A stretch of DNA of 64,000 bases from Botryllus schlosseri (lineage: Eukaryota). Where the stretch lies: positions 15,750,001 through 15,814,000 of the forward strand of contig CM119371.1 of assembly GCA_051294905.1 (NCBI GenBank), read 5' to 3'. The notes below the pieces were generated by a model, which was not told where the DNA came from, made no database searches, and saw only the letters and a program-made list of their open reading frames with translations. Shown here one piece after another: positions 6,345-34,836 of the stretch (position 1 is its first letter; each line of letters begins with the position of its first letter). Made by a program: the position numbers and the translations under genes.

Positions 6345-6360
6345 AACGTGTTCTGAGACA

Positions 6361-9300: not shown

Positions 9301-10509
9301 ATATTACGAGGAAATCGCATAATCATACCGAGAAGTCTGCGGCCGCAGATACTGAAAATTGCTCATGAGGGGCACCAAGGAATCGTTAAAACAAAGAATC
9401 TCTTGCGCACGAAAGTTTGGTGGCCAAAACTTGATAAAGACGCGGAGAGAATGTGCAGAGCCTGTTATGGCTGTCAAGCAGTTTGTGGATATGCGAAACC
9501 TGAACCTATGGAAAGAACTGCTCTACCAACTGGACCATGGCAAGATCTCGCCGCAGATATCCTTGGCCCCATGCCGACTGGAGAGTCTCTCTTTGTAGTA
9601 GTCGATTACTACAGCCGGTTCTTTGAAGTCGTCATCTTGAAGACAACTACTTCTTCGAAAATCATCAATGCATTAAATGAGATCTTCGCACGATTCGGAC
9701 TTCCAGTGTCTTTGAAGACTGATAATGGTAGCCAATTTACATCGGAGGAGTTTGAAGACTTCCTTCGTGAATATGGTATACAACATAGAACGTCTCCACC
9801 ACTCTGGCCGCAAGCGAATGGGGAGGTAGAAATCCAGAATAAATCCCTTGGCAAGGCAATGAAAGTGGCGCATGCCGAAGGAAAGAGGTGGCAGGAGGAG
9901 CTGTTCAAATTCTTGCTGGCATATCGATCTACCCCGCAATCAACGACAGGAGTGAGTCCTGCCCAGCTCATGTTTGGAAGGCAAATTCGCAACAAGCTTC
10001 CACAGCTTTTGGGGGAAGCCAAAGAAACGGATGAGGAAATCCGTGACAGAGATTGGCAACGTAAAATGAAAGGGAAAATCGAAGCTGATGCAAAACGTGG
10101 AGCTGTGAAGTGCAACATATTGCCTGGAGACAAAGTTCTACTAAAGAATGACAAGCAAGGAAAGCTGGAACCGAGATTTCGAATTTCACCTTACACTGTG
10201 AAAACACGGTGCGGTCAAGAGCTGACTTTGGAATCTAGCGATGGAGTTCGATGTCAAAGAAATAGTTCCTTTGTAAAGCCTCTTGTGCAGTTGGAAGAAG
10301 ATGTAGAGAACGGTTCAGCAAATGATTCTGGAATGAACGACTCTGTGAACGAAGGAACTCCTAGTAATAACATGCCTGCAACAGAACAGCCTCCGGTGCC
10401 GGTACAGCCATCTCGGGCGATGCCGAAGAGACATCCGAGAAGGCCTATCAAGTACAAAGACTATGTTTGCGGCAGTGTTTGGTATAGGAGGGGACACAAG
10501 TATGGGTAG
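6361..10509 (+). CDS. Gag-Pol polyprotein of element B (intact)
   Basis: Uninterrupted ORF; first ATG at 6361. Two zinc knuckles (CYRCDETGH...C, CGRCGKKGHFEKRC), protease IDSGSG, RT IADDL, RNase H TDAG/DHKPL, integrase HHCC plus D..TDNG..E. Confidence 0.97.
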   Translation: MADENNHEDVAGNLAGAASTVEYSASPMPKFEMSGDPTEIATSWKRWKRGFGLYISVKRITADERKVSELLHTGGFDLQDLYYSLVPETEVKTYAEVIEKLDEYLLPKGNAAFERYLFRQVEQNPQETIHQYVCRLKQKAKSCNFKDEDEAICDQVLEKCTDSSLKRKLLEKSTAMKLPDLLQISVAHEAVTRHLMTMSQQEECAAVSDDRHSHTGSGRGRKMTRSRRSSDRKRVDTSVRCYRCDETGHISTDVSCPARKKNCGRCGKKGHFEKRCRSRRPAYRVKETFSSDGSSNSSDDQEDTICNVHKVQRSNSKTAYSTEGGCKDTSDGFIDLTLGGVKLQRLMIDSGSGVNTVDKPTWKYLISKGFRHKVVKKDGNLFAYGQDIPLSVWRVFHVRVKCKETTRSCKCKFYVINKRAKPLLGKRAAEALNLLRVGPPTDELAGEVVLQQKDIREKMLKQFPAVFNGIGKLKNYQMHLHIDGDVRPVAQSCRPIPYGYRDLVAKKLEELQEHGIIEPVPNSPTTWVSPLHVVPKANGDVRLCVDMRMANKAIVRERHPIPTVEDVLNELSGAKFFSKIDLKWGFHQIELDEESREITTFVTHEGLFRYKRLMFGISSAPEKYNKIVTDMLRDCFGVKSIADDLIVFGASKEQHDKNLIGVLKRLEDVGLTVNADKCTFGFRKLTFFGHDLSADGVSPSAEKVEAIRSAKHPRTAAEVRSFLGLVQYSSKFLPDFSQTAEPLRMLTRKGATFVWGKSQKKSFELLKDMITKPMTLGYFRNDCQTRIITDAGPAGLGGVLTQLQDGHWRVISYASRCLSEVERRYSQTEKEALAIVWGCERFNLYVYGRKFEIETDHKPLEFIYGAKSKPSARIERWVLRLQGYDYKVVYRPGKGNIADALSRLNPTKQSDDSGSRQDWVRAVVKASITGTLSIKEIEDESGKDDELLTLKEFIKSGNWKTCKMPGYLGVLEELCVSGNLILRGNRIIIPRSLRPQILKIAHEGHQGIVKTKNLLRTKVWWPKLDKDAERMCRACYGCQAVCGYAKPEPMERTALPTGPWQDLAADILGPMPTGESLFVVVDYYSRFFEVVILKTTTSSKIINALNEIFARFGLPVSLKTDNGSQFTSEEFEDFLREYGIQHRTSPPLWPQANGEVEIQNKSLGKAMKVAHAEGKRWQEELFKFLLAYRSTPQSTTGVSPAQLMFGRQIRNKLPQLLGEAKETDEEIRDRDWQRKMKGKIEADAKRGAVKCNILPGDKVLLKNDKQGKLEPRFRISPYTVKTRCGQELTLESSDGVRCQRNSSFVKPLVQLEEDVENGSANDSGMNDSVNEGTPSNNMPATEQPPVPVQPSRAMPKRHPRRPIKYKDYVCGSVWYRRGHKYG

Positions 10510-10674: not shown

Positions 10675-10839
10675 TGTAGTGTCTTGGCATTGTGGGTAGG
10701 AGTCACATGACCGCGGTGTGCGCGTATGCATGAGACGGGTAGTGAAGCGGGTGATAGAGTAAGAGCGGAGTGAATAAAGGATCGGAATAAGACTGCATAT
10801 ACGTGTGATATCGGACACCGGGTAGGATACTACAGACCA

Positions 10840-13800
10840 GCATCTCATCCCGGTAAAGAAACGCTTGGTTGCAGCTAATGATGAGGGTATCCACATCCTG
10901 GGTGCTGTGTTTCTGCGACTTTCGGGTGCAGCAGTTTCTGGCGATGTCATAGAAACCGCTGAGATGGTATACATTACGGATTCTACGAAACTCTTCTACC
11001 TTAGCCGAGATGCCATGCAGCAGTTGGGCATCATTGGGCCCGATTTTCCTCAAATTGGGGCAGCGGCACTCCACGCGACACGAGAGTCAACCCTTGAGGG
11101 TAACCCGCATCAAACATGTAGCTGCCCACGGAGGTCCACGCCTCCTCCACGCCCCCAGCAGCTGCCATTCCAGCCTTGTGCGGAGAATGTGGATAAAATG
11201 AAGCAGTGGTTACTTGAGAGGTATGCATCGTCCACATTCAACAAGTGCAAACACAGCCCACTACCAACCATGACTGGGCCGCCTATTTCCATTCATATCG
11301 ATCCGTCGGCAACACCGACTGCAGTCCACACACCGGCTCCCATTCCACTTCATTGGAAAAAGGAAATCGAGAAGCAGTTGGAGGCGGACGTAAAATTAGG
11401 GGTGATTGAAAAAGTGGAGCCGAACACGCCAACGACCTGGTGTCATAGGGCCATATGGGTGCGCAAGGCAGATGGCAGCCCGAGGAGAGTTGTTGACTTC
11501 CAATCGCTGAACCGCTTCTGCTCTCGAGAAACACACCATGTTGTGCCTCCTTTCAAACAAGCACGCTCGATACCTCCAAACACTTACAGGTCTGTCACAG
11601 ATGCCTGGAATGGCTACCATTCCGTGCCCGTGCGTGAAGAGGATAGACACCTTCTGACATTCATCACTGAGTTCGGGAGATATCGGTATAGAGTGGCCCC
11701 GCAGGGATACCTGGCCAGTGACGACGGGTACGCTTACCGCTACGACAGCATCATTACCGACACACCACGCAAAACGAAGTGCGTGGACGACACGGTCCTC
11801 TGGGACGATGACCTTGTCACGCACTGGTGGAGGATGATTGACTATCTAGAATTAATGGGTCGTGAAGGTATCATCCTAAACGCCTCCAAGTTCCAGTTCT
11901 GCCGCAGACATATCGAGTTCGCCGGCTTCGAAATTACTGCCGAGAATGTTCGCCCTCTGCCCAAATACTTGGAAGCAATACAGTGCTTCCCACGGCCAAC
12001 AAAAATCGCAGATATACGTGCATGGTTTGGGCTGGTCAACCAGGTTTCTCATTATGGCCGGCTTTCTACCATTATGGCACCATTTAAACCGTTACTAAGC
12101 GTGAAAACTCCATTTTGCTGGACTTCCGAACTTGATGATGCATTCGTGAACTCCAAGCTCGAGCTCATCAACGCAATCAAAGATGGAGTACGTATCTTTG
12201 ACCCCACTAGAAGAACGTGCCTGACCCCGGACTGGTCAAGGTCTGGCATTGGCTATACTGGCTGCGACAGAAGTACTGCAAATGCGTTTCCTTGACCCCT
12301 GACTGTTGCGTCCATGGGTGGAAAATCACTCTCGCTGGTTCAAGGTTCCTCCGATCCGCCGAACAACGTTATTGTTCTATAGAGGGCGAGGCGCTTGGAA
12401 TCGCATGGGCAATAGAAGATACGAAGTTCTTCACCCTCGGATGTGACGATCTTATCATCTGCACTGACCACAAACCTTTGGTAAAAATCTTTGGGGACCG
12501 CTCCCTTGATGAAATTACTAACACGAGGATTTTTCGTCTGAAGCAGCGCACATTGTCATGGCGCTTCCGTGTCGTCCATGTTCCTGGCAAACTCATTCCT
12601 GCATCTGATGCGTTCTCCAGGCACCCTGCTTCCTCATCTCCAGTGGATGACATGCCATTGGATCACTGCGACAGTATCGTGGCTTCTCATGAGGACACCA
12701 ATCTGATTGAAATCAGCATCGTGGCCACCTCCCGAGCATCATTGAATGCCATTGAAGTTGTCTCCTGGGACGATGTAAAGCGCAGTACTGCATACGATCC
12801 TGTTCTCAGTGAGTTAAAAAATCACATCATATCAGGATTCCCAGACAAATCGGACAAACTGCCTTTTCAACTACAGTCATATATTGGCGGTACCGCGACG
12901 ACCTTTCGATCGTAGACGATGTTGTCATGTATAATGACAGGATTGTTGTTCCCCCGCCGCTGCGAGGGGTTATCTGTGAAATCTTACACTCGGCACACCA
13001 AGGGACTGCTGCCATGTCACAGAGGGCGCAGGCCACAGTATTTTGGCCTGGGATGACTGAGTGTATAGCACGTACACGAGCACGTTGTGACAACTGCAAT
13101 AAAATGGCACCGAGTCAAGCATACATGCCTCCGGCCGAGCCATTCATACCGACCTACCCTTTCCAAGCTGTTGCCGCTGATTATTGCACCGCTGCAGGCC
13201 ACCACTATTTAGTCGTTGTTGACCGCTTCAGCAACTGGCCAGAGATATTCCATGTGAAGCACGGTGGGCAAACGTCTGGAGCCCTCGGACTCCAAGATGC
13301 ATTACGAAGTTACTTCGGCACGTTTGGTGTGGCCGAAGAACTTAGCAGTGACGGGGGACCCGAGTTTGCTGCGCACAGCACTCGGTAATTTTTTCGAAAA
13401 TGGGGGGTGCGCCACAGGCTGTCGTCAGCCTACCACTCCAGGTCAAATGGCCGCGCGGAGGCTGCGGTGAAATCGATGAAACGACTCCTTCTCGGCAACA
13501 TTTCGCAGGATGGCAGCATCCGGACCGATGCAATTACTCGGGCATTGCTACAGTTTCGCAATTGCCCCGACCCCGCGAATGGACTCTCATCTGCAGAAAT
13601 AGTATTTGGCAGGACTTTGAAAGATGCGTTGCCGATCAAAGAATGGGTTCCAGTTTTCACACAGCGCAACATCAGGCCATTATGGAGGAATCTCTGGCAG
13701 AGTCGCGAGCAAACGTTACGTACCAGATTTGCGAAGCAGCTGGAATCTCTGTCGTTGAACACTAAGCCATTATCACCACTTCTTGGAGGTGATGTCTGTC

Positions 13801-14246
13801 GCATTCAAAACCAAAACGGTCGTTATCCCCTTCGCTGGGACAGAACCGGCACTATGGTTCAGTGCCGAGACCATGAGCAGTACCTCGTGAAAGTGGACGG
13901 TTCCGGCAGATTGACGCTACGTAACAGGAAATTTCTACGCAAGATTGAGCCGTACTTCCCGAACCAAAAGCACACATATTTTCAGCCAACGGTCTCGTCT
14001 CCCGGCACAGCTACGTCACCTCAAGTCGTTTCGCCACCCACTCTAAGTGGACAGTCGAATGAGGTAGACCCGGGCTTGCTGAGATCCACCGAATCGAGTG
14101 CAGAAGATCATCTACCAGCTGGAGTACCGATCGACGACACTAGTGTACCCGCACCGTCTAACAATAGACGCCAGCGCTCAGGCAGAAATGTTACCCCGCC
14201 AGTATGGTACAAGGACTACGTTATTGGGGCCCAAATTTTACGTTGA
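10840..14246 (+). pseudogene. Element A pol (protease C-half, RT, RNase H, integrase) broken by frameshifts
   Basis: Consecutive ORFs 10865-12295 (RT, CVDD), 12217-12915 (RNase H, TDHKPL), 12927-13388 (HSAH..C..C, SDGGPEF) and 13407-14246 (SNGRAE). Confidence 0.95.
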
Positions 14247-17611: not shown

Positions 17612-17704
17612 CTACCGGGAAACACGTATATTGTGGGTAGACGCATATTAGCTGTGGCAACTGATACTTTTCATGGTATCAATGGACAGAAAAAGTGTAG
17701 TTAC

Positions 17705-17853
17705 CAGAGTCGGTCCACTCGACTGTGTTACAGTATTGCCCTTTGCAGCAAAAGTGGCACACCGCCCCGATCTCTCCAGGCTTGCAAGCCTTATCATTGG
17801 ATGCCACGTATTTCTGACAATCAGATTCGCTCATGCAACCTCTCGAATGTAGC
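17705..17853 (-). CDS. Exon: C-terminal half of a Ly6/uPAR (three-finger) domain
   Basis: Phase-2 acceptor TTCAG. LHSRGCMSESDCQKY...CKPGEIGAVCHFCCKGQYCN (CCxxxxCN). Donor GTAACT. Confidence 0.85.
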
Positions 17854-18709
17854 CTGAATATGTCGAACAAATTACGAAATAGTTCACCATTCGGTTTTGC
17901 TGATCGCTATTAGTAGAGTTTCTCTCGCCATCAATGTATTGACGTTTTAACTAGTATAGGTCTTTAGTGTTTCGTGTTTTAATTTCATGGTCGATGAGAA
18001 TGGTTAACCCACTCAGAGATGACCAGTAACGAAGTACTTATAATTTATTCGATACTCGAGGGGTTATGCTTTGAGATTACTAACACCTCTATTCGAAGTT
18101 TTTTTCTTCGTAAAACTACTTACTATCGACACTTCAGATTTTATAAAGTAGATATTAGTTTTGGGATAAGCTTGCATCACTTTTACGAGCGGAATTTTCA
18201 TGACAACTCGGCGTCATCCCTACCGTGTCTAGGTAACATAATATAATATCGTAGCGTGTCTGATCATCTTGGTTCCTTTCATGTTATCCATTCTCAAATA
18301 CAGCGTGCATGCCTCTTATATACACGCTGTAGACCACGGGGTGTCTGATTAAAAGACTACTGCTCCAAGTCGTTTCGGCACCACTTCTTTATCTTCTCCT
18401 TATATTACGATATTGTGGTGTATTGATTTGATAAACCAAATTATTGAAATGACAACAGGGGAAAGATACATCTTGCAATTGCGATTAACTGTTAAAAGTA
18501 TGCAACCAACTACCAAAGCTACTTTTAAGATATACGTGCTCGAGTACATTTCAGATCACCATTTTCTACCACATGAAGTATAGTTTGGCGTGTCTTCGAT
18601 ATTGCTAATTTAATCGAAGCATATACTTGTCGTAGAGTAGAAATTTGTCGCGTTACTTCTACTTCGACTTGAGTAGTATAGTCGATCGCTCGTGACGGGC
18701 TATTGATTC

Positions 18710-19110
18710 TTATGGGCCCGCTCGCACGTCGTATTGAAAACTCGTGTTGGCATATCGTACTTTTAGACCCCCCCTATCGCTCGCACATCGTAATGTGTTC
18801 TTATGGGTGCACTCGCATGTCGTACTTTCAGGTATAGGCTGCGGCGGTGACTCGTATTGAAAACTCGTGTTGGTATATCGTACTTTCGGGTGTAGGCATC
18901 TCTCGCACATCGTACTTTCGCATGTCGTACTTTCGCGTATAGACTGTGTTGATGATTCGCTATGTGTTCTTATGGTCGCGTCGGCATATCGTACTTTCGG
19001 GTGTAGGCATCTCTCGCACATCGTACTTTCGCATGCCGTACTTTCGCGTATAGATTGTGTTGGTGATTCGCCATGTGTTCTTATGGGTGCGGTCGTGATA
19101 CGCACTTTCA
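18710..19110. repeat. Subterminal nested repeats (111-123-bp units, 8 CGTACTTT motifs); mirrored at 32727-33127
   Basis: Near-identical 111-bp units start at 18869 and 18980. CGTATTGAAAACTCGTGTTGG occurs at about 18730 and 18853. Confidence 0.9.
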
Positions 19111-19562
19111 ACCATCTCTCGCGTGGTGTTGAATAGTCACCAACAATAACCGCACAAACGGAAACGTGGCTTGTTGTGAGGATTAAGCATGCGACCTATA
19201 TTTCGAATGACCTGCGTGCTGAATTGTTTCACGTCCAGCCGCTACTATCGAATATTACACTAGACCGGTCAGTGTGAAATAGTTTGATCGTAAATTATGA
19301 TATATGACGTCGTAGTTTAGTCGTGTCAAATGACCGATCGTGTTCTCTTTCCTCGCTATTGATTGCTACCTGAATAATACTTTCGGCTTATTCGCTGTTT
19401 CGCGCCTACAGAATAGTCTGCTGTTCATAGTCACAGATTCATCGCGATAGCACAATTTTCACACCTCGATCAGTAGAACAACACCACACTAACGCAGTTG
19501 GCGAATCACATAGGTCATACATTTTACGCGAAATATTGTATTGTGGTATACAAATATGCAAA

Positions 19563-20198
19563 CTATTCTTTCAATTCAACAAGTCTAGTTAACGGATCGA
19601 TTTTCAAGCTGCCGACACAGTTTTTAACACGAGTGAGTTGATATTTCTTCCCGGGTACGAGCGAGGCTTTGTTCCATTGATCCAAAACCACCTCACCAGT
19701 ATCATCCTTCAATGTAAAACTGTATAATTTCAACTCCTTTCCGGCCCCAGAATTGACCATCTTCTCCTCTCGAGAAACACAAGTAGCGGCGATCGAAACG
19801 TATTCATCTTTATTCCCGTATACCGATTCGCAGGTCAATAATGGGTATTCTTCAGTCGTATGTCTCGATTTTCCATGCGTGGTTACTGACGAAGCCCGTC
19901 CCAGTAATACAGCAGGTTTTCCAGTAAACTTGTCAATTTGGACCCAACCGGATTTGACCATGAGTTTTTTTCGTTTGGCGAATGCTTTCTCAATGTTCCC
20001 GAACAATTCACGATTGAAACACGTGAAAGATATCTCTTCGTTATTACCGTCGATGAATATACCTTTGAGATATTGGCTAACGCCACCTCTTTTGGGTGAT
20101 GAGACGAATTTGACGCCGACGTGAAAATTTGAAGTTGCTCCGACTTGCATAGTGTTGACGCTGTTCGATGTCATATCGTTTGATAAAGTGGGAGTCAT
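19563..20198 (-). CDS. Tandem OB-fold, RPA70/SSB-like putative ssDNA-binding protein (211 aa), left-arm copy
   Basis: Longest clean ORF in the arm. The second half VSIAATCVSREEKMVNSGAGKELKLYSFTLKDDTGEVVLDQW...GKKYQLTRV resembles RPA OB-folds. The first half has FIDGNNEEISFTCF. Confidence 0.75.
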   Translation of the reverse strand: MTPTLSNDMTSNSVNTMQVGATSNFHVGVKFVSSPKRGGVSQYLKGIFIDGNNEEISFTCFNRELFGNIEKAFAKRKKLMVKSGWVQIDKFTGKPAVLLGRASSVTTHGKSRHTTEEYPLLTCESVYGNKDEYVSIAATCVSREEKMVNSGAGKELKLYSFTLKDDTGEVVLDQWNKASLVPGKKYQLTRVKNCVGSLKIDPLTRLVELKE

Positions 20199-23100
20199 CA
20201 GTGTAACTCACTACACAAATCAAGTTGAATCGTATTTGAATGTATTGATTCGACCCAACTCAAATCCTTTGACAAATCCTATTAACGCGATCTGTTGAAT
20301 CGAACGTAACCTGAATATTACTGACGCCAACATTCACCCGCATCGGATCATTCACACATTCCACGTCGGTGTTTTAACACTTATAGAATCAATACCAACT
20401 ATCTCTAACCCGATAATATTCAATCATTTTGGTAATTTGCCAACTTTAAATCCATTCGCGGGATGTACTAAAGGTAAATCCAAATAATCCAGAATGAAAT
20501 ATTTGGACTTCGACATTGCGTGAATTGAAATAGGTTTGACAAACATGACTACCAACTTTCACCAAGTCACATTTCAAGATTATACTTTGAAACAATCCTT
20601 GAAACTGACAACTCTATTCACGACTCCGTTTCCGTTTGTAAAATAGAGTTTCAGAAATACTATCACTATGACAACTCAACATTTTAACATCTCACCATGC
20701 AGAAACGAGTTAAATACAAAAACCTTGTCAAGTCAATCCGTTTGTAACTCACCGAACCAAAGCAAAAAGTGTCCATACGAAAAGTAGACAAGACTACGCA
20801 AGTAATCACTAACCCACAAACATCAAGTTCGGTTTTAGGCATATACCACCAACTCGTCTTTTTTGTTCAACTGTAAAAGTCGTTACTAGGCCGCAAGACC
20901 AAGAAATTACTATGCGGTATATTTTGTAAGACAAAAGTAATTACTTCTCGGTGTCGGCGACTTGAGATTAACATAATATATTTGAGTATACGACATTTGA
21001 AAGTATGACCATCGTAGTTTCTTACAATCGACCGCAGGTGTTATATCGAAAATTATCGTGATGTAAACATAAGGATTGTCACATCGATTTAACATATGAG
21101 ATTTTGTAATGTTCTATCATGACTTGATTATTAAATTATGACATTATTAGACCAGAGTTGTGTTGAAGGTTATTTTGACATCAACAAACTTTTCAGTGCC
21201 ATTGTTATTAACACATCGAGTTGTAAAACTATGCGTGTCTGAAATGTTCTTGAATGGAAAATTATTCCACCTTGGTACATATCACCCTGCGTATCGCGGA
21301 TATCAGAAAATATTTTACAAATGTAATTGTCTCCACTAACCAAGACTAAAGATGAAACAACAATTTCCTTTGTTAAACAATAACCGGTACAATACTTTAT
21401 CATCGTAATCGGCAGTGAGAATTGAAACACTTTCGCACATTATCCAGCGTCAAGATATCACACTAGGTGAATTGACATACCGCCGCTTGATTAATACCTA
21501 ATCCATTCGCACCATTTCACATACTTTGATCATTACAAAAGTAAATTGGAATATGTTTGTTAGATGCATTCAATTCAACTAGAAGTGTCTGGTACACAAC
21601 AATCGTAATATCGAAAAAGTACTTGCCACACTGTTATTTGCTAAACGTGTTTTGTATTGTTGTCCATTTGTAGTATTGATTGTTTTTGAACCCCCAAATC
21701 ATAATTCCCGACATGAAACCAAGCCGCTGAAAGTCGTTACCATCACGAAGATACAATGTGCACGATGTTTGTCAAATGTGTCCTACCTGGCCAACAGAAA
21801 ACAATTTTCACTCACTCGAAATGAAACCAATGTGATGGTCTCCATTCGATATTTTGTTTGTGTCAAATATACTTTGCAATGAACACATTTGCGTGGTTGA
21901 GCTTTGCCATCATCAAGCTGTCATTTGTATCGTTTAATTAACCGACATTTAGCGATTGGTGAACATACCGAACGATACACAGTCACTTCGAAATACTCCG
22001 TTGATCGTAATTTCCATCATCATAATAATCGAAGTACAATTGCTTCGAATCGCTAGAGTGGTTGAGCTTTACATCATCAGACTGCCATCTGTACATCAAG
22101 AATACATCCGCCTTGTAACTGGGTCGTTTACCTAACCGAGTTGTATGCACAGTTTGATATTTAGCGATTGCAGAACATACCATTTCGAAATACTGCGTTG
22201 ATCTCAATTCCTTTGTCGTGATAATCGAAGTATATTTGTTTCGATTTCATAAAAACCAACTTTTCTATGACATGATAAATTTTTGAAAAGTTATGCTTAG
22301 AAGATTGGTGCATCTCGCGAAAAACTAATATACCACTCATATTGATACTGTTACTCCATTGACCGGTATTTTCAAACGAGTCGATTTTCAACTGAGCAAA
22401 ATTTATTACTTGAGTTGTCCCGCTTACTATATTTAAATGTAAACTCACCCGTCTTTCAACAACAAAGACATGGATAAAAAGTACACAAGCAAACACAACA
22501 AGTTTTACTTTTGTTGGACACCAATTATTATTCCACGCATCTCATTTCATACTAAGTGTATATGAAAGATATTCATGGCACACGAAAATATTCGATATTC
22601 CATGCTACGAACATACGCAATGATTGGTGACGCTTTCACACTATTTCGATTTAGTGTAACAAAAACAACAACAACAATTTTCACTGTCTTGACTTATGAA
22701 AACAACAGACGAACCTTCATTCAATATTTTGTTTTTGTCAACTAGTTACTTTTTCATGAGACCCCCACAACTCTTACAGACGTACGAAAGATATTTACAT
22801 CACACAAAGTAATCAACTTTACTCGATGTTCTCACATTACGAAACTAAAGAATGGTTGGTTTGACTCTACAAACTGTTTCGTCACCTCAAGAACTTTATT
22901 GTCTGAATGGTTGTTCATGTGTCTTAAGAACCAAATAGTTCAACACAGCACTAGTACCAACAGAAACATCAGAGTTGTTTACACAAAAGTTTGTATGTGT
23001 ACAGTATGTGAATACCATGTGTAAGTCCAGCACAATTGTGGTATCCATCCGGGTTTAGTTAACACAATTTACGACACCGAGGTCGCCTCATCTTTCGTAA

Positions 23101-23904
23101 GACAACAAACCAACCAAGGCTTCAGGATATGTCCATGTCATAGCAATACATCAGCTACTCCAACAACAGAGTACATATGTTTTCTAGTTACGGTGCTTAC
23201 ATCTTACACACAAATCAATCTACTTTGCTAACAAAAAGTGCTGAGTCATCAAGTGATTGCCCTAGCAACAAAACAGCTAAACGTACTATCATACAAAATG
23301 GCCGTTATAGTCACCAACGGTACATGGTACAAGTAACAAGTCTCGAGAATCCAGTTATTGAAAAAACGTGAAAGTGTTTCTCCTGCGCCAAGTCGTTATG
23401 TTGACGAAAGCGTATATTGTAATATCATGATCGATTTGCATTCGTTGGTCACAAAATGTCACTACTCTAAATAATTATTTTTTACTCAAACACAAACGCA
23501 TACTTGTCACCATTCGTTTTCATCAAGCACGAGTTCAAGAAACTTACTTACTACGACATGAATTGATATTTTTATGATGTGTAAATACGTAATAATTAAT
23601 TTTAGTAACACTATCAACATCATCGAGTTGTGCGAATAGATTTTCATGTGGTCTTGCGGTTTTAATCGAAGCACACATCATGGTCTAATGTAGAGTCGTC
23701 TCTATTGTACAACAACTCGGTAATCGAAATGCATGCATTAACATTTGAACAACGATCTTGTTTCGTCGCACCAAAAACATGTTCACTGTCACAATACTCT
23801 GCACAAGACGTGGAAATCCTTTTCACCCTCATAATAGTATACCAACGACCACCGACGACAACGTTTAACAATACCAACGACACTGGAAACACTGAACCCA
23901 CGAC

Positions 23905-24695
23905 ACTTACCCGAGTAAAAACACATTTTCCTTTGGCTACATGGCGCTTACCAGAGTAAAAAATATCATTATCACCTGGAGATCCACCGTTACCCGAGCA
24001 ACAAAACCATTTTCTTTTGGAGATCTATCGTTTACCCAGTGTAACAATACATTTTCACATGGCGGTCCATCGTTTACCCAGAGTAACAAAACCATTTTCA
24101 CTTGCAAATATATTTTTCCCTGGGTTACAAACCATTTTCACTTGCAAATATATTTTTTCCCTGGGTAACAAACCATTTTCACTTGCAAATATATTTTTTC
24201 CCTGGGTAACAAACCTTTTTCTCTTGGTAACAAACCTTTTTCACTTGGAAATATATTTTTTCTCTTGGTAACAAACCTTTTTCACTTGGAAATCTATTTT
24301 TCCCAGGGTAACAAACCTTTTTCACTTGCAAATATATTTTTCCCCCTGGGTAACAAACCTTTTTCGCTTGGAAATATATTTTTTCCTTGAGCAACAGACC
24401 ATTTTTACTTGGAAATATATTTTTTCCTTGAGCAACAGACCATTTTTACTTGGAAATATATTTTTTCCCTGAGCAACAAACCATTTTTACTTGGAAATAT
24501 ATTTTTTCCCTGAGCAACAAACCATTTCACTCGGCGGGTCGTCGTTTACCTGAGTAAAAATATCATTTTCCTTTGGAGATCTGGCGTTTACCCATTGTAA
24601 CAATACATTTTCACTTGGAAATCTGTCGTTTACCCGAGTACCAATACCGTTTCACTTGGAAATCTATCTTTTCCCTGGGTAACAATACCATTTTC
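23905..24695. repeat. Tandem array of ~40-41-bp units (roughly 19 copies); mirrored at 27142-27932
   Basis: Unit approx. CCCTGGGTAACAAACCATTTTCACTTGCAAATATATTTTTT, with more diverged units at both array edges. Confidence 0.92.
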
Positions 24696-26083
24696 GTTTT
24701 GAAAACTGACAACCACACCGGTCAATTTGATATTTTTTGTATATTGTTACAACAGACAGCGACAAAATATACACCAACAACGACTCCGATACATTTGTCT
24801 AATCAAATATTCACTTGCTCTGATGCATCCCATCAAAATCATTGGTTACTCACATACAATAACAATGTGCTGTTGTACATCGACATGTATGTTTTCGGAA
24901 TTGGTGAATAAAGGGGTTTCCGATATGTCAGTGATGTCCGGGTTCGTGCTTTGGATTTTCCAGAGTCAAAATGTCTGAATAAAACACCTCCTCGACTTTG
25001 GTAACTGGTTGATACACGGATAATGGTGTTCGGAAAACGGATGAATTTATGTTCCCCATCGCGCTGACAACATCGGGTTACTTGTGAGTTTCCCCGGGTC
25101 TGTTTACTATATTGTGTCTTTACTGGTCAATACATGTCGCTCCAGTCAGCTGAAACCGGATCACCAATATGAGAAAGTGTGGGGGCCGGATCCGGATATT
25201 CACTCATGACCCAACGACCGATATTCAAGTAAACATGTTACAGACCGTGTTTTGTCTCCATGAAAAATACCTATGCATACACCATCACATACAAGTAACG
25301 TCACGATTGTTCACAAGTATTCGCGTAAACGAGGTATACATACAATGTGTCGGTGTACAAACATCATGGAAAACAAATTCATGTTCTCAAGTCTCATCAT
25401 GCGACGACTCTGTGGGTATAGATGACTTGGAGACAGGCAAGCAGCCATATTTGGACGTAACATGGTCTTAGTTTGAACCGACTTCCACCCAACTTGTGAA
25501 AAATCAATCTCACACGAGTACAGCCCTTTCACGGATTCACACCTTGATTTTGTAAGATTGTTCGGATTCTCAGGTAGACTTGTATCGTGATCCAGACTTC
25601 GACATAATCGGATTGCGTAACTCGCTCAATCCCTCCGCGTATTGTTCGTCCTAACCTGCGAACTTTTTTGCTGAGGCCGCAGTGTTTCACATGGTATAAT
25701 GTATTTGGCGATCACCATCGTTATCAATCTTTCACGTGATGAATATGTCAGATGTCGCTACTCCCACATAACGACTACAGATAAACATCGTGAGCAGTGA
25801 CTCCGGATTGGAATCGTAAACAGAGACTCTCTGTGTGTGTGTGTGTGTGAATCTCGAGTTCGATTACGATTAGATAATGTAATCCAAGGTGTGTCTCTGT
25901 GAGTTGAAGGCTTATTTCGTGTTAATCACATCGCAAGAGGGAGCTATCTCGTAATTCTATAGGTCGTTATAAAACGCGGTTGGAAACTTTCGGTCTAGTT
26001 GATCCAGCTACGTATTGAAACGGTTCACCCACGCAGACCACTGAGAAAGCGTTGTCGTTACCTGAGTATATCCACGAGTAAAT

Positions 26084-26359
26084 ATGGGACTACGCGTAAC
26101 TGTCCATAGATTCCTCTGGCCCCACACCGTTGTTTTACGACACAGACAAGATGCAGCGGTGGAAATATTGAAAATGAAAAACGATACCTTGGTGACATTC
26201 GATTTGGATTTTACACCTGATGAACCATACACTCGATTGGTACATTGGGATGACAACTCTATCGTCGAGGTCGAGGGAAAAGAAATGTACAGATTTGTTG
26301 GTGTTGTGGATATTCAGCGAAAATCAGGGTATATGGTTGTATATGGTTCGCATATTTGA
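26084..26359 (+). CDS. Hypothetical 91-aa protein in the unique spacer
   Basis: ATG-initiated ORF with globular-looking composition. TATAAAA at 25968-25974 lies upstream. No family recognised. Confidence 0.4.
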   Translation: MGLRVTVHRFLWPHTVVLRHRQDAAVEILKMKNDTLVTFDLDFTPDEPYTRLVHWDDNSIVEVEGKEMYRFVGVVDIQRKSGYMVVYGSHI

Positions 26360-26410
26360 CTGAGAATATATCGGTATGCATAATGCACTATCCGTTGTAT
26401 CATGTCGTGT

Positions 26411-29400
26411 GTCATCTATACCCACAGAGTCGTCGCATGATGAGACTTGAGAACATGAATTTGTTTTCCATGATGTTTGTACACCGACACATTGTATGTA
26501 TACCTCGTTTACGCGAATACTTGTGAACAATCGTGACGTTACTTGTATGTGATGGTGTATGCATAGGTATTTTTCATGGAGACAAAACACGGTCTGTAAC
26601 ATGTTTACTTGAATATCGGTCGTTGGGTCATGAGTGAATATCCGGATCCGGCCCCCACACTTTCTCATATTGGTGATCCGGTTTCAGCTGACTGGAGCGA
26701 CATGTATTGACCAGTAAAGACACAATATAGTAAACAGACCCGGGGAAACTCACAAGTAACCCGATGTTGTCAGCGCGATGGGGAACATAAATTCATCCGT
26801 TTTCCGAACACCATTATCCGTGTATCAACCAGTTACCAAAGTCGAGGAGGTGTTTTATTCAGACATTTTGACTCTGGAAAATCCAAAGCACGAACCCGGA
26901 CATCACTGACATATCGGAAACCCCTTTATTCACCAATTCCGAAAACATACATGTCGATGTACAACAGCACATTGTTATTGTATGTGAGTAACCAATGATT
27001 TTGATGGGATGCATCAGAGCAAGTGAATATTTGATTAGACAAATGTATCGGAGTCGTTGTTGGTGTATATTTTGTCGCTGTCTGTTGTAACAATATACAA
27101 AAAATATCAAATTGACCGGTGTGGTTGTCAGTTTTCAAAACGAAAATGGTATTGTTACCCAGGGAAAAGATAGATTTCCAAGTGAAACGGTATTGGTACT
27201 CGGGTAAACGACAGATTTCCAAGTGAAAATGTATTGTTACAATGGGTAAACGCCAGATCTCCAAAGGAAAATGATATTTTTACTCAGGTAAACGACGACC
27301 CGCCGAGTGAAATGGTTTGTTGCTCAGGGAAAAAATATATTTCCAAGTAAAAATGGTTTGTTGCTCAGGGAAAAAATATATTTCCAAGTAAAAATGGTCT
27401 GTTGCTCAAGGAAAAAATATATTTCCAAGTAAAAATGGTCTGTTGCTCAAGGAAAAAATATATTTCCAAGCGAAAAAGGTTTGTTACCCAGGGGGAAAAA
27501 TATATTTGCAAGTGAAAAAGGTTTGTTACCCTGGGAAAAATAGATTTCCAAGTGAAAAAGGTTTGTTACCAAGAGAAAAAATATATTTCCAAGTGAAAAA
27601 GGTTTGTTACCAAGAGAAAAAGGTTTGTTACCCAGGGAAAAAATATATTTGCAAGTGAAAATGGTTTGTTACCCAGGGAAAAAATATATTTGCAAGTGAA
27701 AATGGTTTGTAACCCAGGGAAAAATATATTTGCAAGTGAAAATGGTTTTGTTACTCTGGGTAAACGATGGACCGCCATGTGAAAATGTATTGTTACACTG
27801 GGTAAACGATAGATCTCCAAAAGAAAATGGTTTTGTTGCTCGGGTAACGGTGGATCTCCAGGTGATAATGATATTTTTTACTCTGGTAAGCGCCATGTAG
27901 CCAAAGGAAAATGTGTTTTTACTCGGGTAAGTGTCGTGGGTTCAGTGTTTCCAGTGTCGTTGGTATTGTTAAACGTTGTCGTCGGTGGTCGTTGGTATAC
28001 TATTATGAGGGTGAAAAGGATTTCCACGTCTTGTGCAGAGTATTGTGACAGTGAACATGTTTTTGGTGCGACGAAACAAGATCGTTGTTCAAATGTTAAT
28101 GCATGCATTTCGATTACCGAGTTGTTGTACAATAGAGACGACTCTACATTAGACCATGATGTGTGCTTCGATTAAAACCGCAAGACCACATGAAAATCTA
28201 TTCGCACAACTCGATGATGTTGATAGTGTTACTAAAATTAATTATTACGTATTTACACATCATAAAAATATCAATTCATGTCGTAGTAAGTAAGTTTCTT
28301 GAACTCGTGCTTGATGAAAACGAATGGTGACAAGTATGCGTTTGTGTTTGAGTAAAAAATAATTATTTAGAGTAGTGACATTTTGTGACCAACGAATGCA
28401 AATCGATCATGATATTACAATATACGCTTTCGTCAACATAACGACTTGGCGCAGGAGAAACACTTTCACGTTTTTTCAATAACTGGATTCTCGAGACTTG
28501 TTACTTGTACCATGTACCGTTGGTGACTATAACGGCCATTTTGTATGATAGTACGTTTAGCTGTTTTGTTGCTAGGGCAATCACTTGATGACTCAGCACT
28601 TTTTGTTAGCAAAGTAGATTGATTTGTGTGTAAGATGTAAGCACCGTAACTAGAAAACATATGTACTCTGTTGTTGGAGTAGCTGATGTATTGCTATGAC
28701 ATGGACATATCCTGAAGCCTTGGTTGGTTTGTTGTCTTACGAAAGATGAGGCGACCTCGGTGTCGTAAATTGTGTTAACTAAACCCGGATGGATACCACA
28801 ATTGTGCTGGACTTACACATGGTATTCACATACTGTACACATACAAACTTTTGTGTAAACAACTCTGATGTTTCTGTTGGTACTAGTGCTGTGTTGAACT
28901 ATTTGGTTCTTAAGACACATGAACAACCATTCAGACAATAAAGTTCTTGAGGTGACGAAACAGTTTGTAGAGTCAAACCAACCATTCTTTAGTTTCGTAA
29001 TGTGAGAACATCGAGTAAAGTTGATTACTTTGTGTGATGTAAATATCTTTCGTACGTCTGTAAGAGTTGTGGGGGTCTCATGAAAAAGTAACTAGTTGAC
29101 AAAAACAAAATATTGAATGAAGGTTCGTCTGTTGTTTTCATAAGTCAAGACAGTGAAAATTGTTGTTGTTGTTTTTGTTACACTAAATCGAAATAGTGTG
29201 AAAGCGTCACCAATCATTGCGTATGTTCGTAGCATGGAATATCGAATATTTTCGTGTGCCATGAATATCTTTCATATACACTTAGTATGAAATGAGATGC
29301 GTGGAATAATAATTGGTGTCCAACAAAAGTAAAACTTGTTGTGTTTGCTTGTGTACTTTTTATCCATGTCTTTGTTGTTGAAAGACGGGTGAGTTTACAT

Positions 29401-32400
29401 TTAAATATAGTAAGCGGGACAACTCAAGTAATAAATTTTGCTCAGTTGAAAATCGACTCGTTTGAAAATACCGGTCAATGGAGTAACAGTATCAATATGA
29501 GTGGTATATTAGTTTTTCGCGAGATGCACCAATCTTCTAAGCATAACTTTTCAAAAATTTATCATGTCATAGAAAAGTTGGTTTTTATGAAATCGAAACA
29601 AATATACTTCGATTATCACGACAAAGGAATTGAGATCAACGCAGTATTTCGAAATGGTATGTTCTGCAATCGCTAAATATCAAACTGTGCATACAACTCG
29701 GTTAGGTAAACGACCCAGTTACAAGGCGGATGTATTCTTGATGTACAGATGGCAGTCTGATGATGTAAAGCTCAACCACTCTAGCGATTCGAAGCAATTG
29801 TACTTCGATTATTATGATGATGGAAATTACGATCAACGGAGTATTTCGAAGTGACTGTGTATCGTTCGGTATGTTCACCAATCGCTAAATGTCGGTTAAT
29901 TAAACGATACAAATGACAGCTTGATGATGGCAAAGCTCAACCACGCAAATGTGTTCATTGCAAAGTATATTTGACACAAACAAAATATCGAATGGAGACC
30001 ATCACATTGGTTTCATTTCGAGTGAGTGAAAATTGTTTTCTGTTGGCCAGGTAGGACACATTTGACAAACATCGTGCACATTGTATCTTCGTGATGGTAA
30101 CGACTTTCAGCGGCTTGGTTTCATGTCGGGAATTATGATTTGGGGGTTCAAAAACAATCAATACTACAAATGGACAACAATACAAAACACGTTTAGCAAA
30201 TAACAGTGTGGCAAGTACTTTTTCGATATTACGATTGTTGTGTACCAGACACTTCTAGTTGAATTGAATGCATCTAACAAACATATTCCAATTTACTTTT
30301 GTAATGATCAAAGTATGTGAAATGGTGCGAATGGATTAGGTATTAATCAAGCGGCGGTATGTCAATTCACCTAGTGTGATATCTTGACGCTGGATAATGT
30401 GCGAAAGTGTTTCAATTCTCACTGCCGATTACGATGATAAAGTATTGTACCGGTTATTGTTTAACAAAGGAAATTGTTGTTTCATCTTTAGTCTTGGTTA
30501 GTGGAGACAATTACATTTGTAAAATATTTTCTGATATCCGCGATACGCAGGGTGATATGTACCAAGGTGGAATAATTTTCCATTCAAGAACATTTCAGAC
30601 ACGCATAGTTTTACAACTCGATGTGTTAATAACAATGGCACTGAAAAGTTTGTTGATGTCAAAATAACCTTCAACACAACTCTGGTCTAATAATGTCATA
30701 ATTTAATAATCAAGTCATGATAGAACATTACAAAATCTCATATGTTAAATCGATGTGACAATCCTTATGTTTACATCACGATAATTTTCGATATAACACC
30801 TGCGGTCGATTGTAAGAAACTACGATGGTCATACTTTCAAATGTCGTATACTCAAATATATTATGTTAATCTCAAGTCGCCGACACCGAGAAGTAATTAC
30901 TTTTGTCTTACAAAATATACCGCATAGTAATTTCTTGGTCTTGCGGCCTAGTAACGACTTTTACAGTTGAACAAAAAAGACGAGTTGGTGGTATATGCCT
31001 AAAACCGAACTTGATGTTTGTGGGTTAGTGATTACTTGCGTAGTCTTGTCTACTTTTCGTATGGACACTTTTTGCTTTGGTTCGGTGAGTTACAAACGGA
31101 TTGACTTGACAAGGTTTTTGTATTTAACTCGTTTCTGCATGGTGAGATGTTAAAATGTTGAGTTGTCATAGTGATAGTATTTCTGAAACTCTATTTTACA
31201 AACGGAAACGGAGTCGTGAATAGAGTTGTCAGTTTCAAGGATTGTTTCAAAGTATAATCTTGAAATGTGACTTGGTGAAAGTTGGTAGTCATGTTTGTCA
31301 AACCTATTTCAATTCACGCAATGTCGAAGTCCAAATATTTCATTCTGGATTATTTGGATTTACCTTTAGTACATCCCGCGAATGGATTTAAAGTTGGCAA
31401 ATTACCAAAATGATTGAATATTATCGGGTTAGAGATAGTTGGTATTGATTCTATAAGTGTTAAAACACCGACGTGGAATGTGTGAATGATCCGATGCGGG
31501 TGAATGTTGGCGTCAGTAATATTCAGGTTACGTTCGATTCAACAGATCGCGTTAATAGGATTTGTCAAAGGATTTGAGTTGGGTCGAATCAATACATTCA
31601 AATACGATTCAACTTGATTTGTGTAGTGAGTTACACTGATGACTCCCACTTTATCAAACGATATGACATCGAACAGCGTCAACACTATGCAAGTCGGAGC
31701 AACTTCAAATTTTCACGTCGGCGTCAAATTCGTCTCATCACCCAAAAGAGGTGGCGTTAGCCAATATCTCAAAGGTATATTCATCGACGGTAATAACGAA
31801 GAGATATCTTTCACGTGTTTCAATCGTGAATTGTTCGGGAACATTGAGAAAGCATTCGCCAAACGAAAAAAACTCATGGTCAAATCCGGTTGGGTCCAAA
31901 TTGACAAGTTTACTGGAAAACCTGCTGTATTACTGGGACGGGCTTCGTCAGTAACCACGCATGGAAAATCGAGACATACGACTGAAGAATACCCATTATT
32001 GACCTGCGAATCGGTATACGGGAATAAAGATGAATACGTTTCGATCGCCGCTACTTGTGTTTCTCGAGAGGAGAAGATGGTCAATTCTGGGGCCGGAAAG
32101 GAGTTGAAATTATACAGTTTTACATTGAAGGATGATACTGGTGAGGTGGTTTTGGATCAATGGAACAAAGCCTCGCTCGTACCCGGGAAGAAATATCAAC
32201 TCACTCGTGTTAAAAACTGTGTCGGCAGCTTGAAAATCGATCCGTTAACTAGACTTGTTGAATTGAAAGAATAGTTTGCATATTTGTATACCACAATACA
32301 ATATTTCGCGTAAAATGTATGACCTATGTGATTCGCCAACTGCGTTAGTGTGGTGTTGTTCTACTGATCGAGGTGTGAAAATTGTGCTATCGCGATGAAT

Positions 32401-33165
32401 CTGTGACTATGAACAGCAGACTATTCTGTAGGCGCGAAACAGCGAATAAGCCGAAAGTATTATTCAGGTAGCAATCAATAGCGAGGAAAGAGAACACGAT
32501 CGGTCATTTGACACGACTAAACTACGACGTCATATATCATAATTTACGATCAAACTATTTCACACTGACCGGTCTAGTGTAATATTCGATAGTAGCGGCT
32601 GGACGTGAAACAATTCAGCACGCAGGTCATTCGAAATATAGGTCGCATGCTTAATCCTCACAACAAGCCACGTTTCCGTTTGTGCGGTTATTGTTGGTGA
32701 CTATTCAACACCACGCGAGAGATGGTTGAAAGTGCGTATCACGACCGCACCCATAAGAACACATGGCGAATCACCAACACAATCTATACGCGAAAGTACG
32801 GCATGCGAAAGTACGATGTGCGAGAGATGCCTACACCCGAAAGTACGATATGCCGACGCGACCATAAGAACACATAGCGAATCATCAACACAGTCTATAC
32901 GCGAAAGTACGACATGCGAAAGTACGATGTGCGAGAGATGCCTACACCCGAAAGTACGATATACCAACACGAGTTTTCAATACGAGTCACCGCCGCAGCC
33001 TATACCTGAAAGTACGACATGCGAGTGCACCCATAAGAACACATTACGATGTGCGAGCGATAGGGGGGGTCTAAAAGTACGATATGCCAACACGAGTTTT
33101 CAATACGACGTGCGAGCGGGCCCATAAGCCACAATAGCCCGTCACGAGCGATCGACTATACTACT
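26411..33165 (-). repeat. Right arm of giant inverted repeat (6,755 bp)
   Basis: Reverse complement of 18672-25426. Confidence 0.97.
31639..32274 (+). CDS. Tandem OB-fold, RPA70/SSB-like protein (211 aa), right-arm copy
   Basis: Translation identical to 19563-20198. Confidence 0.75.
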   Translation: MTPTLSNDMTSNSVNTMQVGATSNFHVGVKFVSSPKRGGVSQYLKGIFIDGNNEEISFTCFNRELFGNIEKAFAKRKKLMVKSGWVQIDKFTGKPAVLLGRASSVTTHGKSRHTTEEYPLLTCESVYGNKDEYVSIAATCVSREEKMVNSGAGKELKLYSFTLKDDTGEVVLDQWNKASLVPGKKYQLTRVKNCVGSLKIDPLTRLVELKE

Positions 33166-33278
33166 GACTTGAGCAACAAGTCGCACTTCGTCATGAAAAA
33201 CAACACGGGTGAATAACTTTGCTCTTCAAAATATTTGCGCCAATCGCGTACTGACGCGACGAGCCATATGTATAATAC

Positions 33279-33396
33279 CGTTCCGAAGTGTTCGCGAAGT
33301 ATTCGGCTTGCGTGAAGCACCAGTCACCGGAATTAGGACATGTCTTCAAGTAATTTTCAGCTTCGAAATACCTGTCGGTGTTCCAGCACTTTGCCC
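33279..33396 (-). CDS. Exon: N-terminal half of the LU domain that is completed at 17853
   Basis: Acceptor TTCCAG. AKCWNTDRYFEAENYLKTCPNSGDWCFTQAEYFANTSER. The phase-2 GT donor joins in frame to LHSRGC. Confidence 0.75.
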
Positions 33397-34836
33397 CTGG
33401 AATGGAATTGCAGGAATTACTTACTTATCCCCATCAGAATTCCTACCTAAGAGCTGGGGGTTTATCTGGGCTCCTCCTCGCCACCTCATCCGTTTAAGCG
33501 GTGTCTTATAACTGCCCAAAAGTGGGCAGTGCCACATGCCGGCAGCTACGGAATAAAAATTAAAAATATCGGCCTGGTGTAAATGACCAAATGACCATAT
33601 TAGTCGATAAAACCATGAATTACCACATATAAACTTACTTATCCGCATGCAGGTTGTCAGATCGATATCCTCCATGCACGATATGCCTCACAATTATATT
33701 TCAGCGGAATGCCACTTTTATTGAACATTGCTTAGGAAAAATGACTTAATGATTGCTATTAGGATTTGGAAAGTAGAAGGTATACCTTTGGATAGGTTTG
33801 AGTCTCTCTCAAAAGTGACATTACCACGAGAATGTCATGAAATAGCCGATATATCACGGTATCAGAATATACTTGGAAGATTCAACCTATATTTGTACTG
33901 CCGCTAATGATTTTACGTTATCCGTGCAGATGCAACCTGTAATTCCGAAAGTACCAATCTCCGATTAACAGCTAAATGTAGTATTTTACATATTATAAAT
34001 TATTATATATGCAAATCCTGGTGATTTTCAGGCCATTCATTTCTTACTCCCACTCGAAGTAATGTTGACATGTCTTGGAAATAGCTACTTCTAACGGAGT
34101 TAAAATTTTCTATTTGATTAGCATCGCTGACCATTTTAACTATCTCTGTATATAGATCAGTTGTTCTTGAGCATTAGTAACCAGCAGAACACTTACGTTA
34201 ATCTGCAAGCCTTCGCGGAACCCCACATTTCCATGAATACAAGAACCACCGCCATACACATCTTACTAGACATCTAATACATTACCCTATATAACTGGTG
34301 TACAAAATGAACTGTGCAACAACAGACTCTGTTTAAAGAACGAGACCATTAAACTATAAAACATTATAATGAATATTTATTGAAAATCAATGTGACATCT
34401 GGTGTCCCCATTCAGAAACCAGTTCACAAATGCGAGATTTCACCTTGGAAAGTATTATTGTATTGGTCGACCGAAACGTAACAGCGTAATACCAGCTGCT
34501 TAATTGGATTGCTTGTAAATATAGGGGTTAGAATTGGCATTTCAGAAGGTCGTTTCGGTTTCGAACCCTAACCTCCCGCGTACACCACTCCCACTACACA
34601 CGACGTATACCACAACAGTCAATATTATATTACTGATCGTGCCTAATTGCCTGCAACTAATGATGGCCAAGACTGTCGTATCATATATGCATCATACAAA
34701 TCATGTCTATGAGTTGAGTGTGTGACTTGACCTTCACGGAACACTAGGGATAAGAAACATTGATACTTGAATGCTTCCAAAACATCGGCACGATAACTTC
34801 ACGTGGGAAGTCTTCACCCTATCTTATTTCACAGAC

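Follow-up and report, generated by a model that had tools for sequence, protein, structure and literature searches.

Mavericks, also called Polintons, are described in vertebrates as ending in (AGT)2//(ACT)2 or (AG)3//(CT)3, an end repeat linked to a jumping-back initiation, as lying within a 6-bp target-site duplication (TSD), and as being of constrained size, with lengths of 12.7–24.6 kb (mean 16.9 kb) and terminal inverted repeats (TIRs) of 46–1,447 bp (mean 402) (PMC8097293). As they have been defined, all Polintons encode a protein-primed polymerase (pPolB) and an integrase (PMC5499653). The longest Maverick TIRs that we found in print measure 1,447 bp (PMC8097293) and, in butterflies, about 2 kb (10.1101/2025.02.07.637071). 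In this work, we have analysed computationally a stretch of 64,000 nt from Botryllus schlosseri (assembly GCA_051294905.1, contig CM119371.1, positions 15,750,001 to 15,814,000 of the forward strand), called the window hereafter, which holds at positions 18672–33165 an element with Maverick-type ends that is almost entirely its own inverted repeat. To our knowledge, the replication and movement of Mavericks have never been directly observed and their non-autonomous derivatives are barely documented; a search of the full-text literature, with supplementary files outside its scope, found no description of a palindromic or giant-TIR non-autonomous Maverick.

The window element shares with the vertebrate Mavericks, as these are described, the end motif, the perfect 6-bp TSD, the possession of TIRs and the length range (the palindromes studied here measure 12.9–16.0 kb), but its TIR of 6,755 bp, which makes up 93% of the element, is far outside the range reported, we find in it no pPolB, integrase, ATPase, protease or capsid gene, and its family has hundreds of copies, in contrast with the low copy number given for most vertebrate hosts (PMC8097293). 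In the butterfly polintons, gene-bearing TIRs double part of the content at both ends, as occurs here, although according to their description those elements keep the full set of core genes and the TIRs are a minor part of them (10.1101/2025.02.07.637071). Because it fails on both the polymerase and the integrase of the published definition (PMC5499653), the window element is to be classed as a non-autonomous derivative, and not as a Polinton in the strict sense. Our results make it probable that it inserted recently and that it belongs to an old, highly amplified non-autonomous Maverick/Polinton family, the whole genome of which is a snap-back palindrome. Such a family would depend on a helper and would be mobilised by it in trans.

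Large inverted repeats are known in the genomes of adenovirus incomplete particles, and adenovirus vector genomes that are too small form multimers until packaging size is reached. The self-complementary genomes of parvoviruses and adeno-associated virus (AAV) are half-length genomes doubled, through a hairpin intermediate, to an inverted dimer of about wild-type length. Replication in these systems is hairpin-primed or that of a vector, whereas here it would be protein-primed. Snap-back or copy-back defective viral genomes are likewise symmetric palindromes, produced by reverse-complement copying of one end, lacking genes and helper-dependent; they are described as arising anew in each infection and as short-lived (PMC13506859), in contrast to the palindromes studied here, which are integrated in the germline, heritable, old (synonymous divergence, dS, of about 1) and endowed with a conserved open reading frame (ORF) of their own. 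These snap-back genomes and the self-complementary parvovirus genomes are the closest functional counterparts of the family.

The window palindrome and its family

The inverted arms lie at 18672–25426 (plus strand) and 26411–33165 (minus strand), 6,755 nt apiece, on either side of a single-copy spacer, or loop, of 984 nt (25427–26410, plus strand). The inverted repeat accounts for 13,510 of the 14,494 bp of the element (93.2%), a symmetric, snap-back-like reverse-complement duplication over nearly its full length. The ends read AGTAGT...ACTACT, that is (AGT)2 at 18672–18677 and (ACT)2 at 33160–33165, and the hexamer GACTTG stands immediately outside them (18666–18671 and 33166–33171) as a perfect 6-bp TSD. 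All these features had been reported in an earlier note on this DNA and were reproduced; counted base by base, the two arms differ at three sites, clustered at positions 35–37 from the tip, which sets their identity at 99.956% and not at 100%. The affiliation of the ends with Polintons, also claimed there, agrees with the (AGT)2//(ACT)2 motif and the 6-bp TSD described for vertebrate Mavericks (PMC8097293).

The three differing bases (18706–18708 against 33129–33131, ATT against TGG) lie within the first CTTATGG-type motif of the tip. The tip of a sibling element, C10, is similar, not identical, to the TGG version, and as far as these sequences can tell the three bases may have come in together, as one patch taken over from a different lineage, and not by three separate mutations. 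(Siblings are labelled C5, C6, C16 and so on after their source contig; N5, N11 and N12 are three extra loci reached through the ORF of the loop, the central ORF.)

The left flank of the window element has paralogues on the same contig, and in the three that were fetched (L055–L057) the left and right flanks are contiguous, joined by one hexamer: GACTTG, GACTTG and TACTTG. All three paralogous empty sites thus carry a single hexamer, which shows that the TSD is no coincidence and that the whole palindrome was inserted in one piece with a 6-bp duplication, as the earlier note had supposed. The window element integrated as a single linear duplex of 14,494 bp, both ends being joined in concert over a 6-bp stagger. 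The flanks themselves (17679–17906 and 33191–33424, both on the minus strand) belong to a locally duplicated unit with at least four paralogues on this contig, at 88–93% identity. This unit holds short cysteine-rich frames, without a Pfam match, which give the impression of exons of a small secreted protein; if so, the insertion may lie within an intron of a gene of this kind.

In the genome searched (495.5 Mb in 219 contigs), the terminal 529 bp of the element gave 67 matches, mostly as inverted pairs 11–31 kb apart. Seven of the eight pairs that were fetched proved to be giant palindromes, with arms of 3.6–14.4 kb, and the three loci reached through the central ORF were all palindromic. Together with the window element this makes 12 members read, 11 of them palindromes with arms of 2–14.4 kb. 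The sibling palindromes with different TSDs that a genome search with the terminal sequence was expected to reveal do exist: perfect and distinct hexamers bound the eight palindromes in which both canonical tips are in view (GACTTG, TTCGTC, TTTATA, GTCGTC, ATCATA, TACGGC, CTTGTG and CCTGGG), the count leaving aside C10, N5 and N12, in which one or both tips are out of view.

Within a copy, the arms are 98.33–99.98% identical (gap-free count, over the palindromes aligned). Between copies, arm DNA identity ranges from 69 to 98% and different segments have different closest relatives; the lineages are therefore old and recombining. The centres of the palindromes are homologous across clades, with two deep clades at dS of about 1, and the layout of arm, loop with a conserved small ORF and inverted arm is itself homologous across deeply diverged copies. 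With homologous centres and an inherited layout, the palindromes differ from snap-back genomes that are generated anew during replication of a helper.

The family is large. A pattern for the tip has 831 matches in the genome, divided between the strands as 410 and 421, against 0 and 5 for the controls, and a codon pattern for the motif DFTPDEP of the central ORF has 743 matches against 0 for its control; about 740 centres of about 14 kb each would amount to about 10 Mb, or about 2% of the genome. Contig C1 holds 30 pairs of plus and minus tips less than 40 kb apart. The central ORF is enclosed by 16 of these pairs, 13 of which span 12.9–15.0 kb with the ORF no more than 0.45 kb from the midpoint; two pairs, both of 15.8 kb, enclose the capsid ORF of the candidate helper described below, and 12 are unclassified. 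The palindromes seem to outnumber their helper.

The largest copy read, C2 (L045–L048, G000:C2:34453200-34485850), measures 31.6 kb, and its 14.4-kb arms are 99.9% identical. Nested within each arm is a palindrome centre that belongs to the window's clade and is partly broken, and the main centre is of the other clade. At about twice the unit length, C2 does not fit a strict packaging limit. At N11 (L052, G000:C11), a second family tip lies 54 bp past the right tip, so that two elements stand almost back to back, and several matches of the central ORF elsewhere are 6–11 kb apart on the same strand. The neighbouring tip and the closely spaced ORFs hint at clustered or tandem insertions.

Coding capacity and a candidate helper

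The twelfth member read, C5, is not a palindrome of this kind. It is 15,486 bp long, with TSD CTCGTT, TIRs of 916 bp and ORFs packed densely on one strand. One of these encodes an rve integrase core (E 1.3e-15) with a chromo domain (E 4.6e-9). Another, of 689 aa, matches proteins of 1,000–1,200 aa with a best E of 1.3e-116; 38 of the best 44 carry PF03175 (protein-primed polymerase family), and the named matches come from sea cucumbers and amphioxus. A pPolB profile built from 37 of those proteins is covered in C5 over positions 57–1172, and with the 689-aa ORF as query phmmer found no PDB entry below E 0.05. A capsid-like ORF of 432 aa scores 0.98 in the ESM Atlas to clusters in which 14–30% of the members carry PF21738 (double jelly-roll); in the genome, 304 candidates for it gave 97 scored matches, of which about 78 are open and at least 96% identical. 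An ORF of 191 aa has a P-loop and a weak AAA match and is ATPase-like. A second clade of capsid-like ORFs (447 aa, 79% identical), with at least 11 genomic copies, mostly open, points to what may be a second autonomous Maverick lineage, as judged from these reading frames.

A helper sharing the termini of the window element had been predicted, and C5 answers to it in end motif, subterminal arrays and 1.4 kb of end sequence. Autonomous Mavericks with these features are numerous in the genome. C5 and the palindromes have the tip AGTAGTATA in common, the tip of C5 being nearly identical to that of palindrome C6. Subterminal arrays of the motifs CTTATGG and TCGTACTTT occupy the first kb of both elements, with six copies of each in C5 and four and seven copies, respectively, in the window element, where the arrays lie at 18672–19300 (plus strand) and are mirrored at the right end. 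In the extract WIN, which adds 500 bp of flank to either end of the window element (WIN position plus 18,171 gives the window position), positions 623–2030 are 94% identical to the end of C5 over 1.4 kb, including an ORF of 211 aa. As regards collinearity of arm and loop with one end of a parental genome, about 1.5 kb of outer arm matches C5, the single autonomous clade compared. The window element is thus related to C5 as a non-autonomous derivative is to an autonomous element of the same genome, having its ends and TSD type in common with it and lacking its enzymes.

That the core genes are lacking, as the earlier note had it, was borne out by several searches. Pfam found no family above cut-off, and no rve match, in five of the longer ORFs of arm and spacer. 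With 17 ORFs of C5 as queries, tblastn matched in the window element only the 211-aa ORF and the TIR; the integrase ORF had no match there, and for the morphogenesis genes (capsid, penton, packaging ATPase and protease) the same search with all C5 ORFs was negative, the one exception being a weak match of the ATPase-like ORF within the spacer that hhalign did not back. The pPolB profile reached a best E of 2 in the window element and of 0.19 in any palindrome. None of the genes by which a Polinton or Maverick is recognised (pPolB, rve integrase, morphogenesis module) was therefore found in the window element. Scans for Rfam families and for tRNAs gave no match in it.

The ORFs found in the window palindrome are of two kinds, both overlooked in the earlier note: one of 211 aa in each arm and one of 91 aa in the loop. 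The first (19563–20198, minus strand, and its mirror copy at 31639–32274, plus strand, within the frame 31630–32274) is 96% identical in amino acids to an ORF adjoining one TIR of C5. It encodes an orphan protein, with a single near-identical database match and nothing above cut-off in Pfam, and its AF2 model (pLDDT 35.4) is too poor for a fold search. Of the palindromes read, three have it: the window element, C2 and C1a, in the last of which it is broken. The exact sequences of the two ORFs are absent from the protein-cluster collection, in which the P0081 cluster has three unnamed members. In the one raw RNA run used, 109 reads were placed, 105 of which fit only partly, too weak a signal for claiming expression.

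The central ORF lies at 26084–26359 (plus strand; 91 aa and stop, single copy). The arm and spacer hold 39 ORFs of at least 60 aa, and this is the sole one that is open in every diverged copy with a match (8 of 8). It is open in 10 of the 11 palindromes read, with a length of 91–93 aa, the exception being C6, whose spacer is 332 nt long. Between clades its ratio of nonsynonymous to synonymous divergence (dN/dS) is 0.20–0.34, at dS of 0.80–1.24, in all ten pairs compared, and these ratios show that the ORF is, as judged by its codons, under purifying selection. Between the window element and N12 the ORF is 98.9% identical in DNA, the adjoining spacer 86.5%. A genome search with the ORF gave 150 scored matches among 1,203 candidates, 149 of them without a stop, so that at least 150 copies exist.

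The spacer of the window element is 94% identical to that of C16. Between the two deep clades it is unalignable except for the central ORF and a block of about 53 nt (block A, 25751–25803, plus strand), 80–95% identical across clades and located about 280 nt upstream of the ORF; both are conserved in seven of the eight palindrome spacers compared, the window's included. Block A may be a promoter or another cis element. As regards the protein, the structure model is all-beta with a pLDDT of 46.8, too poor for a fold search; the ESM Atlas gave no usable match, and a scan of IMG/VR with the alignment of the ORF gave 88 pattern matches, none of them confirmed. A profile search of 1.84 billion proteins found one orphan of 91 aa and two WD40-repeat proteins (E about 1e-5), which we take as spurious repeat matches.

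Arm concert, proposed mechanism and alternatives

How the arms evolve was followed in eight pairs of copies, the four arms of each pair being aligned and oriented by the loop ORF. At 5,378 variable sites both arms of a copy agree while the copies differ; no site is polar (upstream against downstream arms), none is crossed, and 338 are singletons. Every substitution fixed in the divergence of the lineages is therefore on both arms. Within a copy the arms differ at 1 to 60 positions (0.02–1.7%), and in the older copy C16 the mismatches are distributed evenly, with 13, 15, 15 and 17 in the four quartiles of the arm, a pattern that fits arms which are identical at insertion and decay afterwards.

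We propose that the palindrome began once, by a template-strand switch (copy-back), which would have doubled a half-length defective genome to about the length of the helper and may thereby have kept it packageable. The protein-primed polymerase of the helper would replicate the palindrome from its Maverick origins, with the trinucleotide end repeat serving jumping-back initiation, as proposed for Mavericks, and the rve integrase of the helper would insert it. Strand-displacement replication would free a single strand, which would fold into a 6.7-kb hairpin; at this stage one arm would be used to correct the other, or a single template to rebuild them, so that new insertions start with identical arms, and after insertion the arms would drift apart in the chromosome, to the 0.02–1.7% seen in the copies read. 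The capsid would set a soft constraint on length, and the 91-aa protein of the loop would be functional and serve the satellite, for instance in replication, in packaging or in interference with the helper. A packaging constraint had also been suggested in the earlier note; the element lengths do cluster just below that of the helper, which fits such a constraint without proving it, and there are outliers at 3.3–8.5 and at 20.8–31.6 kb.

A bolder form of this proposal, which we put forward only tentatively and hold to be somewhat doubtful as a whole, is that the heritable unit is the half-genome of about 7.7 kb (arm plus loop), a self-complementary satellite of an active endogenous Maverick. 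It would pass through a hairpin in each round, where the second arm is corrected or rebuilt, it would reach capsid size by doubling, and the loop protein, selected for over at least a dS of about 1, would favour the satellite over the helper. If this were true, the half-genome satellite would be the first counterpart, in a DNA transposon or endogenous virus, of defective-interfering or self-complementary genomes, in the form of a stable lineage that outnumbers its helper several-fold and makes up about 2% of an animal genome.

What other processes could generate such a locus? The same family and helper are compatible with ordinary duplex replication if gene conversion between the two arms, acting in the chromosome, keeps them alike and the family is seeded from a small number of master copies that undergo it, which we judge unlikely while giving it real weight. 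Closely spaced inverted repeats are known substrates of intrachromosomal conversion, and the large palindromes of the human Y chromosome, with arms more than 99.9% identical, evolve in concert around a unique spacer by this process; those palindromes are immobile, whereas each one here is a TSD-bounded insertion. The absence of polar sites against 5,378 concerted ones fits any homogenising process that is fast enough, and 20 of the 21 arm mismatches of C12 fall in one quartile, in a patch-like manner, but the graded arm divergence across copies (0.02% to 1.7%), even along the arm in C16, is what is expected without correction after insertion, and the older-looking copies also have indels and asymmetric insertions. 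It is a good deal less probable that the palindromes are kept or tolerated since read-through hairpin RNA feeds small-RNA silencing of the autonomous Mavericks, an idea that would add to mobilisation in trans and not replace it. About 1.5 kb of arm is common to the helper, so that a hairpin transcript would be homologous to it, and a few RNA reads lie on both strands over 19478–20380, a weak sign; against this, the RNA reads on the element are as few and as partial as reported above, and silencing accounts neither for the conservation of the loop ORF nor for the spread of copies bounded by TSDs.

The remaining explanations have much less in their favour. In foldback transposons (FB, Tetris), as in the window element, very long TIRs contain tandem repeats and most copies are non-coding (PMC4079207), and no transposase lies inside the palindrome, so that it could be an unrelated cut-and-paste element with merely Maverick-like ends and a transposase elsewhere. 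We consider this very improbable in view of the (AGT)2 ends with the 6-bp TSD, and of the 1.4 kb at 94% identity and the motif arrays that are common to an element bearing pPolB and integrase. Tandem subrepeats are the main component of foldback TIRs, and foldback elements have a longer TSD. The arms here are in contrast mostly unique sequence, tandem repeats making up only about 1 kb of each 6.7-kb arm: a 111-bp repeat in the subterminal region (18875–19086) and an array of 41–42-bp units in the inner arm (23951–24695, plus strand, with its mirror at 27142–27886). The earlier note read the element literally as a single recent copy-back accident of a normal Polinton, to which the nearly perfect arms and the near-Polinton length would lend themselves. 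This model is scarcely tenable: we reject it because 11 of the 12 members are palindromic with homologous centres, clades have diverged to dS of about 1, and most of the 6.7-kb arm, all but about 1.5 kb, is missing from C5, the autonomous element read; the 743 matches of the central-ORF motif likewise speak against one accident. What stands of that claim is the link to Polintons, with support for helper dependence; what falls is the accident itself, the layout being inherited in an old family. As for an assembly artefact, for instance from chimeric palindromic long reads, near-identical arms and the lack of a spanning read among the sequences placed on the locus would be expected from it, and its probability is nonetheless negligible: both outward tips abut different unique flanks that are contiguous in all three paralogous empty sites, ten other palindromes stand at other loci and 8 of the 11 have a perfect TSD of their own, arm identity is graded from copy to copy, and contig C1 has 13 elements, bounded by tips, with the central ORF at their midpoint.

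Several observations weigh against our proposal of an old, helper-dependent snap-back family, or limit it. As to the helper, the pPolB of C5 lies in four reading-frame pieces, so that introns or breaks are possible, and PF03175 itself has no match on the 689-aa ORF; a scan of the whole genome with PF03175 gave 0 matches, but as its control failed everywhere it is uninformative. The first 46 nt of the window element are only 77% identical to those of C5, so that C5 is a candidate helper and not the exact lineage, and within each arm about 5.2 kb is unmatched in C5 and retains no coding sequence that could be recognised, so that descent from a Maverick end is shown for the outer 1.5 kb only. At the window locus, no read spans the element, the unitigs from public runs being only about 100 nt long and none bridging a junction or the empty site; the depth of element words, 70 to 3,000 times that of the flanks in three samples, is a qualitative indication only. 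Regarding size, 4 of the 30 tip pairs on contig C1 (unclassified) span 3.3–8.5 kb and three palindromes 20.8–26.8 kb, C2 with its 31.6 kb makes any constraint soft at best, and common descent alone could give similar lengths. The concert of the arms could come from gene conversion in chromosomal master copies and not from the replication cycle. Finally, C6 lacks the central ORF and yet has a TSD and arms 99.9% identical, from which it follows that the ORF is not needed in cis.

A derivation of the central ORF from a packaging ATPase was considered as well. tblastn aligned the two at 29% identity over 79 aa (E 5e-4 to 9e-5) in one clade only, and the stricter tests failed, with E 1.7 for a profile hidden Markov model, a probability of 7.7% in hhalign and no ATPase among the 1.84 billion proteins searched; the idea is unproven and serves as a lead only.

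If the family is what we propose, it offers a natural test of what Mavericks require in cis for replication and integration, since only the ends and about 1.5 kb are common with the helper. The complete concert of the arms points to a single-stranded, self-annealing intermediate, which the self-synthesising transposon model predicts and for which evidence has so far been lacking. The family also allows a test of a capsid-size constraint in an endogenous virus, and it brings to light a new orphan protein under selection, which may mediate a conflict between satellite and helper. For the host, about 10 Mb of near-perfect long inverted repeats would add substantially to genome instability and to the supply of hairpin RNA.

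Further features of the window

Outside the palindrome, the window holds other genes and mobile elements. Upstream of it, an uninterrupted frame of 1,401 aa (6304–10509, plus strand) with reverse transcriptase (RT), RNase H, integrase zinc-binding and rve domains looks like an intact pol of a Gypsy-like long terminal repeat (LTR) retrotransposon. It is followed by a second retroelement (10826–14246, plus strand) with RT and RNase H split over several frames, in a region rich in G+C (about 50%). Downstream, a frame of 344 aa (60476–61510, plus strand) has a partial rve core (E 6e-7, below the Pfam cut-off) and may be a remnant of a mobile element, and a gene in a single frame (47321–49003, minus strand) encodes a protein of 560 aa with BTB and Kelch domains.

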